Made by a program: the position numbers and the translations under genes | Notes under the pieces: generated by a model | Told to the model about the DNA's origin: nothing | Seen by the model: only the letters and a program-made list of their open reading frames with translations | The model's database searches: none | From: an uncultured bacterium | Lineage (GTDB): Bacteria > Verrucomicrobiota > Lentisphaeria > Victivallales > UBA1829 | Length of the DNA: 64,000 bases | Direction of reading: 5' to 3' | Assembly: GCA_902778895.1 (NCBI GenBank) | Contig: CACYZF010000003.1 | Location: forward strand, 162,410-226,409 | Shown: in pieces, positions 51,712-62,814 of the stretch | Layout: every line of letters begins with the position of its first letter | Position numbering within the stretch: position 1 is the first letter of the stretch

Positions 51712-54546
51712 TTAGATCGCGGGAACGCCGCGTCCGCTCTGGTCTTCGCGGAACGGGGATCCGTCGGGCTTGATAAGGCGGCTGGTGAGGAAGATCAGGA
51801 GGTTGGTCTTCTTCGAGCCTTTGCCCTTGCCCTGGAAGAAGCGTCCGATCAGCGGGAGATCGCCGAGGATCGGGTACTGGTCTTCGATCATGGAGAGTTC
51901 GTCGCGGATCACGCCGCCGAGGACGACGGTTTCGCCGTCGTAGCTCATGACGTTCGTGTTCAGGTAACGGGCTTCGATGATCGGCATCTTCAGTGTGTTG
52001 GGATAGAGCTCGCCGTTGTCTCCCAGCGGGATGGAGTAGGAGTAGTCGGTCCAGCCGATGAATTCCTGGATGACCGGGGTCATTTCGAGGAAGATCGTGT
52101 AGTTGTCTTCTTCCACGCGCGGACGGACCTGAAGGGCGATACCTTCTTCGGTGGCGCCGCCGAACTGCGGGATGGATGGCGTGAAGACCGGCACGTTGGA
52201 GCCGTTGGTGGAGATCGTTTCGAGTTCGGCCTCATCCCAGTCGGTCGGGTAGTACTTCTCGGTGACCATGCGGATGACAGCGTTCTGGTTGTTCATGGTC
52301 GTCAGACGCGGCGCGGAAAGGATTTCCGTGGAGTCGGCGTTGTCGAGGGCATGGATGCCGCCAGCGAACTGGTAGCCGTCCGCGTTGTAGGTGGACCAGT
52401 TGAAGACCGTGTCGTTGTACGAACCGGTGGTGGCGCCGAAGATGCCGGGGCTGGTCTGGGCGTTGCGGTTGAAGTGGCTGTTCGGGCCCCAGGTGATGTG
52501 GTGGCCGTAGTTCTTCGCCGCTTCGTTCTGGAGGACGCCGCCGTAGTAGCCTTCGCCCGGTTCCAGGTTATCCGGGACGTAGTAGGTGTCGCCCTTCGAA
52601 ACGTTCATGGACTGCATCGCCTGCGTGTTCAGCTCGGTGATGGATTCCGTTCTCCAGGCGTTCGCGAGGGTGGTGTTGCGGGTGTCCGAACCGTTCTGAT
52701 AGTACATGATGAAGGACTCGCCGGCAACGACTCCGTCATTGCCGGTGGGCGAAAGCGGCTGGATGCCGCTGGCCTTGACTTCATCCCAGGTCGGGGCGAC
52801 GCGGGAGAACGTGTAGTCGAAGGAGAGTTCCTGAAGGTCGTTCATTTCGATTTCCACGAACTTGACCTGGATCAGGACCTGCGGGTCGGAGACGTCCATC
52901 TCGTCGATGAGGTCTTCCACACGGTCGATGGCTTCCGTCGTGTTGTAAACAGTCAGGCGGCTACTCATCTCGTCGTAGCGGACGGAGGCGCCGGTCGGGA
53001 ACGGAATACCGCGGTCGATCAGGTACTGCTTGACGCTTTCGTTGGTCAGGTCGCCGCCGATGATGCCGCTGGCGAGGATTTCCTTGTCGATCGGGAAGGT
53101 CTTGCGGACGAACTCGTCGAGCGGGACGTCCTTGGCTGCGATCACGACCGCGTAGTTTTCAACGCGGAAATGGAGATTGGCGGCTTTGCAGATGTAGCGG
53201 ATGGCGTCGATCAGGGAGACGTTTTCGACCACGAGACTGACCGTGGTGTTCTCGATCGTCTGCACGGGCTCGGCTCCTTCGGGACCGCCGATGGGATCGT
53301 CGTAGGAGTAGAAATCGCCTTCTTCGGACTCTTCCTCTTCCGTGGATTCTTCGTCCTCGTCGGCGAATTCGTCTTCATCGCCGAATTCGTCAATGTCGGA
53401 AGGCCGCGAGGCGGAGCTGGTCTCGTCAGTGTTGAAACGGAGGATGAAGTTGACGCCGATACGGTCCGGATCCTTGTCCTTGCTGGTGCTCTTCAGGTAC
53501 TGGACAACGGACGTGATGGAGACGTCGTCGAAGTCAACGCGCGGAATGATGATGTCGTTGAGTTTCTTCTGGATGGTGCCGATGTTGTCTTCCTTCACCT
53601 TGATGCTCTCGGTCACGACGTCGTCGGAGGTCTCGGAACCGGTCGGGATCGGGGAGATCATCTTCCAGAGTGCTTCCGCCTCGCGTTCGAGGAAGACGGC
53701 ACCCTGACGGCGCTGTCCGACCTGGGACTCGTGGAGGTAGATGCGGCGGAGGAAGTCGATGGCCGTGATGTTGTACGGGTCGAGGATGATGACCTGGTTG
53801 AACTTCTCCTGCGCCTTGTTCCACTGCTGGGTGTTGTAGAAGGTCTGGCCCTGGCGGATCAGGACGGAGATGCGTTTTTCACGGTTCTTCGCCTCGGGAA
53901 GGAGTTCATCTTCGGAGGTGTCCTTCTTGTACTGGGCGGACGCCTTCATGAGGGTGTACTCGTCGATGGTCTTGCGCATGATGGGCTCGGAAAGCGGATA
54001 AATCTTGATGCCTTCCTCGCACTTTTCGATGGCTTCGTCGTAGAGGCCGAGCTGCGCGGTCTTTTCCGCCTCGTTGAAGATCTTCCTCGCCCAGTAGTAA
54101 TAGGAGTTGGAGATCATCTTCTGGACTTCGGCGATCTTCTTCTGGTTCGTTTCCGGCACTTCGCCGTCGACGACGTCGGATTCAAGAAGCTTCAGGACGT
54201 CGACGTACGCATCGACCGCGACGTCGTATTCCTCGTGCTCGAACGCGGAGGAAGCCTTCTTCATGAGTTCGTCGGCATTCTTGTTCATCGCATCGCGAGC
54301 GATAAGCTCCTCGATGGACGCGGCGGTCTGATCCCGGAGCGCTTCTTTTTCTGCGTCGGTGAGTTCGGCTTCAGGCTGAGCCTCGACCGTCTCGACGGCG
54401 ACTGTTTCTTCCTCGACGGGAACATCCTCGACCTCCTGCGCGAGGGCAGGAACCGAGAAAGCAAGCGCCAGAAGGATGGCGGAATAGCGGGGGAATGCGT
54501 GCATGGGAGCCTCCATGAAATATTTCAAATCTTTAATCTTCTTCAT
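51712..54546 (-). CDS. Secretin (GspD/PilQ superfamily, Amuc_1098-like), copy 2
   Basis: Signal peptide, acidic linker, TPR-like helices, IIIPRVDFDDVSI N-domain, RLTVYNT..DPQVLIQVKFVE, ILSAPRLTT, GIALQVRP, VVLGGVI, LGDLPLIGRFF, NLLIFLTSRLI. Confidence 0.9.
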   Translation of the reverse strand: MKKIKDLKYFMEAPMHAFPRYSAILLALAFSVPALAQEVEDVPVEEETVAVETVEAQPEAELTDAEKEALRDQTAASIEELIARDAMNKNADELMKKASSAFEHEEYDVAVDAYVDVLKLLESDVVDGEVPETNQKKIAEVQKMISNSYYYWARKIFNEAEKTAQLGLYDEAIEKCEEGIKIYPLSEPIMRKTIDEYTLMKASAQYKKDTSEDELLPEAKNREKRISVLIRQGQTFYNTQQWNKAQEKFNQVIILDPYNITAIDFLRRIYLHESQVGQRRQGAVFLEREAEALWKMISPIPTGSETSDDVVTESIKVKEDNIGTIQKKLNDIIIPRVDFDDVSITSVVQYLKSTSKDKDPDRIGVNFILRFNTDETSSASRPSDIDEFGDEDEFADEDEESTEEEESEEGDFYSYDDPIGGPEGAEPVQTIENTTVSLVVENVSLIDAIRYICKAANLHFRVENYAVVIAAKDVPLDEFVRKTFPIDKEILASGIIGGDLTNESVKQYLIDRGIPFPTGASVRYDEMSSRLTVYNTTEAIDRVEDLIDEMDVSDPQVLIQVKFVEIEMNDLQELSFDYTFSRVAPTWDEVKASGIQPLSPTGNDGVVAGESFIMYYQNGSDTRNTTLANAWRTESITELNTQAMQSMNVSKGDTYYVPDNLEPGEGYYGGVLQNEAAKNYGHHITWGPNSHFNRNAQTSPGIFGATTGSYNDTVFNWSTYNADGYQFAGGIHALDNADSTEILSAPRLTTMNNQNAVIRMVTEKYYPTDWDEAELETISTNGSNVPVFTPSIPQFGGATEEGIALQVRPRVEEDNYTIFLEMTPVIQEFIGWTDYSYSIPLGDNGELYPNTLKMPIIEARYLNTNVMSYDGETVVLGGVIRDELSMIEDQYPILGDLPLIGRFFQGKGKGSKKTNLLIFLTSRLIKPDGSPFREDQSGRGVPAI

Positions 54547-54558
54547 TTCAGCTTCTCC

Positions 54559-61962: not shown

Positions 61963-61965
61963 CGG

Positions 61966-62814
61966 TTATTTCCCTGAGGTTTCTTTGATCGCTTCAAACC
62001 GGTCGAAGAGGACCCATGCGAACGGGGTTTTCGAAACGGGAAGCAATTCATCAGGCATATATTTGAAGGTCTGGGGGTTGAACTTGTTCTTGGCGATGTA
62101 ATCGAAAAGCTTGGCCGTGGAGGCAGCGGTGGGCGCGCCGTTTTCGCCTTCGCCCTTCACGAGCGTGTAGAAAAGCTTCGTGCGCTGGTTGCTCTGGTTC
62201 TTGTCCAGGCGGGAGAATATCTCCTTGCCGCAGGTCTGGAAACCGTACACGGTGCGTCCGCCGTAGGAAATGGCAGCCATCACGGGCAGGTCGCTGGCAT
62301 ATTTCTTCAGGTCGCCCGTGATCTTGTTGTAGTCCTTCGAGAGGTCGCCGGACGCGCCGTCAAACACGAAATGACGGTAGATGACTTCGGGGGGGACCAT
62401 CATGCGGACGAAATGGCGTCCGTCGTTGGCCTGGAGCGAGGCAAGCGTCTGCTTGCCGCCGATCACGGTCCAACTGATGTTCCCGCGGTCGTCGGAGGTG
62501 GGAAGAAACACGTTGACCTCGACTTCGACATTGTCGAGCCATTTCGGCCACTGTGCTGCGCTTTTGGGCTTGTTCGTGGTGAACGCGACGTCGATCGCAA
62601 GCCAGTGCTTGGCGCTGTTCATGTCGCGTTCGTTCAGGCGCATGTCGATCACGCGCTCCTCGTTCTCAATTTTGAAGAACGGGGTAAAGGTCTGGGAAAT
62701 ATTGACAGCTTTCCCCTCTTTCGGGAACTCAATCGCCCAGCTGCCGGAGCGGGCGGTCTGAGCGGAAACGGTAAATGCCGCAGCCGCGAAAAGTGCGATG
62801 AGAAGTTTTTTCAT
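61966..62814 (-). CDS. Amuc_1102-like exported protein
   Basis: Signal peptide; WLAIDVAFTT..WLDNVEVEV pattern; first gene of the operon, as in Akkermansia. Confidence 0.55.
   Translation of the reverse strand: MKKLLIALFAAAAFTVSAQTARSGSWAIEFPKEGKAVNISQTFTPFFKIENEERVIDMRLNERDMNSAKHWLAIDVAFTTNKPKSAAQWPKWLDNVEVEVNVFLPTSDDRGNISWTVIGGKQTLASLQANDGRHFVRMMVPPEVIYRHFVFDGASGDLSKDYNKITGDLKKYASDLPVMAAISYGGRTVYGFQTCGKEIFSRLDKNQSNQRTKLFYTLVKGEGENGAPTAASTAKLFDYIAKNKFNPQTFKYMPDELLPVSKTPFAWVLFDRFEAIKETSGK

Follow-up and report, generated by a model that had tools for sequence, protein, structure and literature searches.

Why would an operon for an envelope machine end in two different secretin genes? Secretins are the gates through which type II and type III secretion, type IV pili, competence systems and filamentous phage cross the outer membrane, and to our knowledge all solved secretins are homo-oligomers. 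The question is raised by a stretch of 64,000 nucleotides (hereafter the window) from an uncultured rumen bacterium of the order Victivallales (GenBank assembly GCA_902778895.1, contig CACYZF010000003.1, positions 162,410 to 226,409), in which six tightly packed minus-strand genes, found at 51712-62814 exactly as a first-pass annotation had placed them, close with the secretin genes sec1 and sec2. The four genes ahead of them appear to encode relatives of the Akkermansia muciniphila proteins Amuc_1102 to Amuc_1099, including a fusion of PilM and PilN (PilMN). Comparison across the order indicates that the upstream (UP) and downstream (DOWN) secretins divide between them two disordered segments that single-copy relatives carry together. 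This reciprocal partition is new in this analysis, and the evidence points to two subfunctionalised copies working together.

Two divergent secretins with a conserved core

The elements in question are the following:
sec1 (upstream, UP paralog), 54559-57183, minus strand: 874 amino acids (aa), TPR-secretin whose N0 loop is short and whose N0-to-N3 linker is long and disordered
sec2 (downstream, DOWN paralog), 51712-54546, minus strand: 944 aa, TPR-secretin in which the N0 loop has an acidic insert and the N0-to-N3 linker is almost absent
sec1-sec2 junction, 54547-54561, minus strand: from sequence reading

Both proteins were matched by the secretin model PF00263 far above its gathering score of 27.5 (sec1, 112.4 bits, 2.2e-32; sec2, 107.2 bits, 8.8e-31), and sec2 was matched by TPR_2 (2.6e-9). 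Against NF042912 (Amuc_1098_fam), sec1 and sec2 scored 263 and 331 bits, respectively, both far below the equivalog cut-off of 750. The combination of TPR and secretin domains, together with their place in the same tree, marks both as clear homologues and not equivalogs. No AMIN domain match was obtained in either secretin, a TPR-like helical domain being present instead, and neither sequence contains a lipobox.

Structural modelling with AlphaFold2 (AF2; pLDDT 77 for sec1 and 73 for sec2) gave a shared plan of a signal peptide, an acidic tail, TPR-like helices of ~220-260 aa, an N0/STN-like alpha/beta domain, N3 and the barrel. In the sec1 model, the helical repeats occupy residues 86-344, the N0-like domain 370-491, a disordered segment 494-526, N3 533-581 and the barrel 587-854. 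In the sec2 model, the helical repeats span 74-296 and N0 spans 323-494, of which 374-425 is disordered; N3 covers 502-550, and the barrel (556-925) is interrupted by an insert at 583-712. A Foldseek search, run for sec1 only, returned PilQ, InvG, GspD and other secretins with E values from 3e-24 to 1e-12, the best match being the competence-pilus PilQ of V. cholerae (6W6M, 3e-24). In the models, both proteins take up a secretin fold in which N0-like and N3 ring domains accompany a double-barrel core. Taken with the PF00263 matches, they bear out the first-pass description of two full-length secretins of 874 and 944 aa with TPR-like helices.

The two proteins share 27-31% identity. All nearly invariant residues of the family are retained in both; among the barrel columns conserved within both clades, 36 hold the same residue and 1 a different one, and only 2 positions in ~640 columns are conserved within each paralog yet differ between paralogs. 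The divergence therefore sits in insertions and deletions, not in a changed core. One short difference noticed at the outset, LIISVST in copy 1 versus LLIFLTS in copy 2, is present in the sequence. A long insert in the secretin domain had also been ascribed to copy 2; it is real (~130 aa) but not paralog-specific, being confined to this family of genomes. As a marker of DOWN it was rejected, since inserts of 105-167 aa occur only in this family and most other DOWN copies have 30-68 aa.

With full core residues and complete domain sets, each paralog could form a ring alone, and the PDB matches of sec1 are homomeric rings. Both points favour the main rival to a joint machine, namely that the two secretins build separate homo-oligomeric channels with different jobs on one inner-membrane platform, for instance one for a pilus and the other for polymer secretion or uptake, or each for a different type of filament. 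On the evidence assembled below, we regard such separate rings as rather unlikely.

A pair fixed throughout the order

Two sets of loci were compared, the first comprising 16 loci from the window's order, and the second 61 named Victivallales/Lentisphaeria loci, each reaching at least 7.4 kb downstream of PilMN. The five-slot gene order 1102-1101-1100-1099-1098 is kept in 37 loci across the phylum, to which the present operon adds one terminal secretin. All 16 order loci read (1102-like)-PilMN-1100-like-1099-like-UP-DOWN, and by best match the upstream secretin is sec1-like and the downstream one sec2-like in each of them. Hidden Markov model (HMM) matches were obtained in 39 of 40 relatives. 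The second set, which includes a metagenome-assembled genome (MAG) of Victivallis vadensis, has the UP-then-DOWN pair at every locus (61/61). In seven genomes belonging to other orders of Lentisphaeria the cluster has a single copy, and beyond the window's order most genomes likewise have one TPR-secretin. The two-secretin layout, for which the first-pass annotation had considered universality in the phylum, is thus universal in the order Victivallales but not in the phylum.

Akkermansia-like genomes have two unlinked TPR-secretin copies, one of which adjoins PilMN. The unlinked second copy exceeds the NF042912 equivalog cut-off and presumably works on its own, a point in favour of separate channels. 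This second secretin of the Amuc_1098 family (L022, G098:C1:134000-153000; L024, G115:C13:10000-29000) lies at a distant locus and has no PilMN or 1099-like neighbours. Independent tandem duplications of the TPR-secretin were observed in two other lineages of Verrucomicrobiota, at L028 (G043:C10:20001-40000) and L029 (G183:C1:2327001-2347000). Homologues come from rumen and gut MAGs labelled Lentisphaeria or Victivallales bacterium; the window's sequence was found in bovine gut metagenomes, and the cluster is single in its own genome (3.24 Mb, 20 contigs).

In a maximum-likelihood tree (53 rows, 754 columns, LG+C20), UP and DOWN form clades with supports of 98/94 and 100/99, respectively, and the split of UP plus DOWN from all single copies is supported at 100/96. 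The two clades show mirrored internal topologies. Single copies of sister orders group with the copies of other classes and with neither paralog, which, when rooted by species relationships, argues for one duplication on the stem of the order. Rooting by the GspD-type secretins of the own genome was dropped, as these attach between the clades or inside UP, a long-branch effect; given such unstable outgroups, we relied on species relationships and on unrooted splits. The tandem copies of G183 form a sister pair (99/96), as do those of G043 with weaker support (90/78). By their placement, these two pairs and the unlinked Akkermansia-like paralog are independent duplications.

Reciprocal partition of two disordered segments

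The N0-loop insert measures 21-30 aa in UP and 36-92 aa in DOWN (to 160 aa in the first set), and the N0-to-N3 linker measures 40-69 aa in UP (283 aa in one protein) and 4-43 aa, with a median of 10, in DOWN. Both differences run in the same direction in 61/61 genomes. Single-copy relatives have both segments, with an N0-loop insert of 22-139 aa (67-139 aa in sister orders) and a linker of 21-56 aa, so the ancestral protein had both and each Victivallales paralog kept one. On this comparison, UP lost the N0-loop insert and kept the linker, and DOWN kept the insert and lost the linker, as is expected when a duplication is followed by complementary degeneration. A barrel loop is ~34 aa long in UP, variable in DOWN and ~55-94 aa in single-copy relatives. 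The same reciprocal partition was sought in the other duplicates (G043, G183 and Akkermansia-like) and was absent.

So systematic an asymmetry could also mean that one copy is the channel and the other an accessory, forming a pilotin-like ring or cap in the periplasm or during assembly and conducting no substrate. UP, stripped to short N0 and barrel loops and hung on a long tether, and DOWN, compact from N0 to N3 and carrying inserts, would suit such a division of labour, as would the resemblance of the N-terminal domain to pilotins, to which the TPR domain of Akkermansia PilQ has been likened (PMC4960237). However, both copies keep every nearly invariant barrel residue and evolve at similar rates, and no domain has been lost in either, making an accessory role quite improbable.

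Transcription and maintenance of the operon

The remaining genes of the operon and its flanking signals are listed here:
ORF1, 61966-62814, minus strand: 282 aa, exported protein, divergent member of the Amuc_1102 (MUL2A) family by profile comparison
ORF2, 60064-61962, minus strand: 632 aa, Amuc_1101-like PilM-PilN fusion
ORF3, 58478-60067, minus strand: 529 aa, predicted bitopic protein, assigned by profile comparison to the Amuc_1100 family as an enlarged, divergent member, in the PilO position
ORF4, 57244-58461, minus strand: 405 aa, Amuc_1099 family protein with a membrane anchor, in the PilP position
Promoter candidate, 62872-62900, minus strand: sigma-70-like TTGAAA-17-TATTTT, 5' of ORF1, from a consensus scan
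Intrinsic terminator, ~51655-51690, minus strand: GC stem followed by T8, closing the operon, from sequence reading and the drop in RNA contig depth

Spacing between the six genes ranges from -4 (an overlap) to 60 nucleotides. At the sec1-sec2 junction, the AAGGAG Shine-Dalgarno of sec2, 7 nucleotides ahead of its ATG, contains the TAA stop of sec1, which couples the two genes in translation. Four rumen metatranscriptomes yielded contigs over the operon. Near-identical RNA contigs of run X2 bridge the sec1/sec2, ORF4/ORF3 and ORF3/PilMN junctions, one of them (record 9, 54114-54576) crossing from sec1 into sec2 with zero mismatches; with the low identity given above, this agrees with the earlier description of the copies as clearly divergent, co-transcribed paralogs. 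RNA contig depth goes up downstream of the promoter candidate, is highest within the operon at the secretin genes and is ~5- to 60-fold lower past the terminator in the four metatranscriptomes, a fall that argues against flat carry-over of DNA. Of the promoter and terminator predicted to flank the operon, a promoter-like site was recovered at 62900-62872 and the terminator at ~51690-51655.

The gene secG (62964-63365, minus strand) lies directly upstream of the operon, and an X2 RNA contig at 61993-63230 runs from secG into ORF1, so that read-through from upstream is possible. An open plus-strand frame of 1891 codons (51544-57219) lies antisense to both secretin genes. It is non-coding by codon usage score and is one of many, as long antisense reading frames shadow most genes of the GC-rich window.

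Of 14 genomes compared within the genus, 13 have the full set of six intact genes, and one has a short PilMN (350 aa). The median pairwise ratio of nonsynonymous to synonymous substitution rates (dN/dS) is 0.20 for ORF1, 0.17 for ORF2, 0.26 for ORF3, 0.28 for ORF4, 0.21 for sec1 and 0.26 for sec2. Both secretin copies are intact and under purifying selection. The second secretin might nevertheless be a redundant duplicate of no special meaning that is heading for loss, since gene duplication is common and this secretin has been duplicated several times in the phylum. Against this stand the retention of both copies, each with the architecture of its clade, by all genomes of an order of at least 11 families, the dN/dS values of 0.21 and 0.26, the lack of stops or frameshifts in the 14 genomes of the genus and the presence of both genes in metatranscriptomes. 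Redundancy is scarcely credible on these grounds, and the data speak against the concern, raised when the locus was first annotated, that one copy might be degenerate or unexpressed.

The alignment proteins encoded with the secretins

ORF2 was matched by PF11104 (PilM_2) at 4.6e-37 and by TIGR01175 with 141.5 bits, passing the cut-off of 133. Against NF045709 (Amuc_1101_fam), it scored 422 bits over model positions 1-564 of 608, under the cut-off of 650, which makes it a homologue below the equivalog level. The profile of its family matched M. xanthus PilM (3JC8_Ma, 1.7e-58) over positions 1-353 and M. xanthus PilN (3JC8_Na, 9.6e-7) over positions 359-497. ORF4 passed the cut-off of NF042425 (Amuc_1099 family; 56.6 bits, cut-off 50) and has a membrane anchor, a CxxC...CPxC motif (Cys4) and DxDxDG repeats. 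These motifs are kept in 32 homologues and also occur in Akkermansia-like Amuc_1099 members; no sequence relative of the ORF4 family was found in the PDB.

No direct HMM match was obtained for ORF1 or ORF3, and direct PDB sequence searches with the two proteins gave nothing useful, so family profiles were needed. For the slot of ORF1, which has a signal peptide, 19 of 32 proteins across relatives match NF042424 (Amuc_1102_rel), the order profile and the outside-order profile align in hhalign with a probability of 99.8 (E 6.7e-28), and the slot profile matches the structure of Amuc_1102 (PDB 7DSZ, 1.2e-39). In the ORF3 slot, 28 of 31 proteins match NF038287 (Amuc_1100_fam), the corresponding hhalign comparison gave a probability of 99.7 (E 1.6e-26), and the profile matches the Amuc_1100 structures 6LAD and 6KNY (2e-46); two proteins of this slot weakly match GspM. 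A cross-slot control gave a probability of 0.4. Through these family profiles, ORF1 and ORF3 can be assigned as divergent members of the Amuc_1102 and Amuc_1100 families, respectively. Neither ORF3 nor ORF4 was matched by PilO or PilP HMMs, the agreement with those proteins being in position and topology only.

These results uphold the first-pass reading of the operon in its parts, that is, an exported first protein (signal peptide of ORF1), a PilM-PilN fusion (domain matches of ORF2 and the profile matches to both M. xanthus proteins), an anchored protein with Ca and Cys motifs (anchor, Cys4, DxDxDG and above-cut-off NF042425 match of ORF4) and a content and order matching Akkermansia Amuc_1102-1098, for which family HMMs and profile-profile links cover all five families. 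They do not uphold its proposal of an undescribed envelope machine. Of 201 genomes sampled across the GTDB phylum Verrucomicrobiota, 188 have an Amuc_1098-like TPR-secretin, and by homology the locus is a MUL2 or type IVa-pilus-like alignment-and-secretin module of a known kind.

Motor, pilins and other secretins of the genome

As had been remarked from the start, no pilin, ATPase or PilC gene is among the HMM matches of the operon; such genes were found on other contigs. A motor cluster at C1:69352-74593 encodes PilC, a PilT-like ATPase and two PilB-like ATPases, and no secretin match was obtained on contig C1. Prepilin-type N-termini number 15 in the genome by TIGR02532, two of them at C1:55190 and C1:55722 and 13 scattered; a strict regular expression for prepilins had found only 2 and was replaced by this model. 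A separate type II secretion system lies on C11, and the genome has two Tad-like sets. With motor and pilin genes elsewhere, the operon shows the usual split layout of type IVa systems, which is no sign of an orphan machine, and the C1 motor presumably docks onto the module that the operon encodes.

The tandem PilB pair was present in all 16 genomes checked, including single-secretin and Akkermansia-like ones, and the two PilB-like genes adjoin PilT and PilC in every Verrucomicrobiota genome checked, which suggests that the ancestor of this pilus-like system already had two extension ATPases. A pairing of the two secretins with the two PilB proteins was considered and rejected, because tandem PilB occurs with single secretins as well and cannot explain two of them.

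These data bear in both directions on the idea of two separate rings. The many pilin-like genes and several ATPases of the genome count in its favour. Against it, the phylum-wide tandem PilB does not pair off with two secretins, a single set of alignment proteins (PilMN, 1100-like and 1099-like) serves two N0 domains, and the adjacency, fixed order and coupling seen in 61/61 genomes, together with the reciprocal loss, exceed what alternative gates would need.

PF00263 has 15 matches in the own genome, among which five further adjacent same-strand secretin pairs were observed (C17:16474-18713, C7:5517-7351, C3:50866-52820, C3:146344-148058 and C6:1507-3609). Secretins in pairs seem to be a recurrent feature of this lineage.

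A proposed joint machine

By our reading, the operon codes for the half of a type IVa-pilus-like machine that spans the envelope and contains no motor. An exported 1102-like protein is followed by PilMN, of which the PilM part is cytoplasmic and the PilN part bitopic. The PilO position is taken by a bitopic Amuc_1100-like protein and the PilP position by an anchored Amuc_1099-like one, and the outer-membrane secretins carry a pilotin-like TPR domain of their own. The motor (two PilB, a PilT-like protein and PilC) and the pilins, encoded elsewhere, would dock onto this module. The secretin gene duplicated once on the Victivallales stem, and the copies have stayed adjacent and in unchanged order. 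UP then lost the N0 insert, its barrel loop became shorter, and a tether of 40-70 aa between N0 and N3 remained; DOWN kept the inserts and lost the tether.

Since each copy is without one ancestral part, and since the two genes are co-transcribed and translationally coupled, both appear to be needed in the same machine, and we consider it reasonably probable that the two secretins are jointly required there. The simplest form of such a requirement would be a mixed ring of UP and DOWN, which is plausible, had been raised as a possibility in the first-pass annotation and is put forward here tentatively. In a mixed ring, two kinds of subunit would hold their N0/TPR modules at different periplasmic depths: the short-linker subunits would keep theirs close beneath the N3 ring, those with a long tether would place theirs deeper, and a two-tier vestibule would result. 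An obligate heteromer could, for example, have UP and DOWN alternating in an even-numbered ring.

Several points weigh against a joint machine. The two segments are disordered and of low complexity, and their partition could be neutral drift that was fixed early. Other duplicates lack the partition, so duplication alone does not force it. The GspD outgroups fall inside the UP clade in some placements, so that it is the rooting by species relationships that makes UP and DOWN sisters. Transcription was judged from assembled contigs and not from read counts, so that contig depth is not quantitative for expression and gives no stoichiometry. Finally, that the machine produces a pilus is inferred from homology.

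If the proposal is true, a mixed ring would be the first secretin of two different subunits among the literature found, and, given the five more tandem pairs in the genome, heteromeric secretins could be a general rule in the lineage. An order-wide paralog pair offers a natural test case for whether rings of secretins can or must use two subunits, and could show how a duplication becomes entrenched in a ring-forming protein. Victivallis vadensis, the species to which one pair-bearing MAG is assigned, presumably has cultured strains, making an experimental test feasible. No description of a two-paralog secretin was found in the literature on heteromeric or tandem secretins or on secretins of Lentisphaerae and Victivallis; as far as we could find, a conserved two-paralog secretin with reciprocal partition is an undescribed variant of a known machine.

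Genomic neighbourhood

Just past the operon terminator, at 46305-51518 on the minus strand, lies a gene for a 1737-aa protein with nine AIDA repeats, Peptidase_C10, CARDB and RTX repeats, which could be a surface or secreted protease-adhesin. Beyond it, at 33204-45908 on the minus strand, are genes of glycan use, encoding GH2, GH39, a LacI regulator and a sugar ABC transporter with its binding protein. By analogy with the mucin context of MUL2 in Akkermansia, this neighbourhood fits a polysaccharide-foraging lifestyle. The MUL2 pilus-like system extends from Akkermansia to glycan-degrading Lentisphaeria of rumen and gut, where it is apparently highly transcribed.

Comparison with known systems

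The closest known relative is the Amuc_1098-1102 cluster of A. muciniphila, which has the same five families in the same order. There the cluster is named MUL2 and linked to mucin foraging, and Amuc_1098 is an abundant outer-membrane PilQ (PMC4960237, PMC13174399, PMC12418764), whose TPR domain is N-terminal and whose secretin domain is C-terminal, as in sec1 and sec2 (PMC4960237, PMC13174399). No protein of the Akkermansia outer membrane is more abundant than this secretin, and in the present operon RNA contig depth peaks over the secretin genes. The role in mucin or glycan foraging and the TLR2 activity of the 1100 protein have been reported only for Akkermansia (PMC12418764, PMC13174399, PMC5332112). 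In contrast to the Akkermansia-like arrangement of one secretin within the cluster and an unlinked second, two adjacent, anciently diverged copies end the operon here. The 1098 and 1101 proteins of the window are under the equivalog cut-offs, the 1100 and 1102 proteins were matched through profiles only, and ORF3 is ~200 aa longer than Amuc_1100. The compact tandem secretin pairs of the own genome are, like sec1 and sec2, adjacent same-strand paralogs, but at ~500-720 aa they are without a TPR domain or PilMN neighbours and only remotely similar to sec1 and sec2.

With the type IVa PilMNOPQ systems (M. xanthus 3JC8; Pseudomonas; Vibrio PilQ 6W6M) the operon shares PilM and PilN, followed by bitopic proteins and then a secretin, and sec1 shares with type IVa PilQ the secretin fold with N0-like and N3 domains. 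Shared with classical type IVa pili, too, is the separation of the alignment and secretin operon from pilB, pilC, pilT and the pilins. The operon differs from type IVa systems in that PilM is fused to PilN and that the Amuc_1100 and Amuc_1099 families fill the PilO and PilP positions. TPR pilotins of type IV pilus secretins (PilF, PilW and Tgl) likewise tie a helical TPR module to secretin assembly, but there the module is a separate lipoprotein, whereas here it lies within the secretin polypeptide. Compared with type IVa PilQ, TPR repeats replace the AMIN domains, and the machine has two secretin paralogs in place of one.

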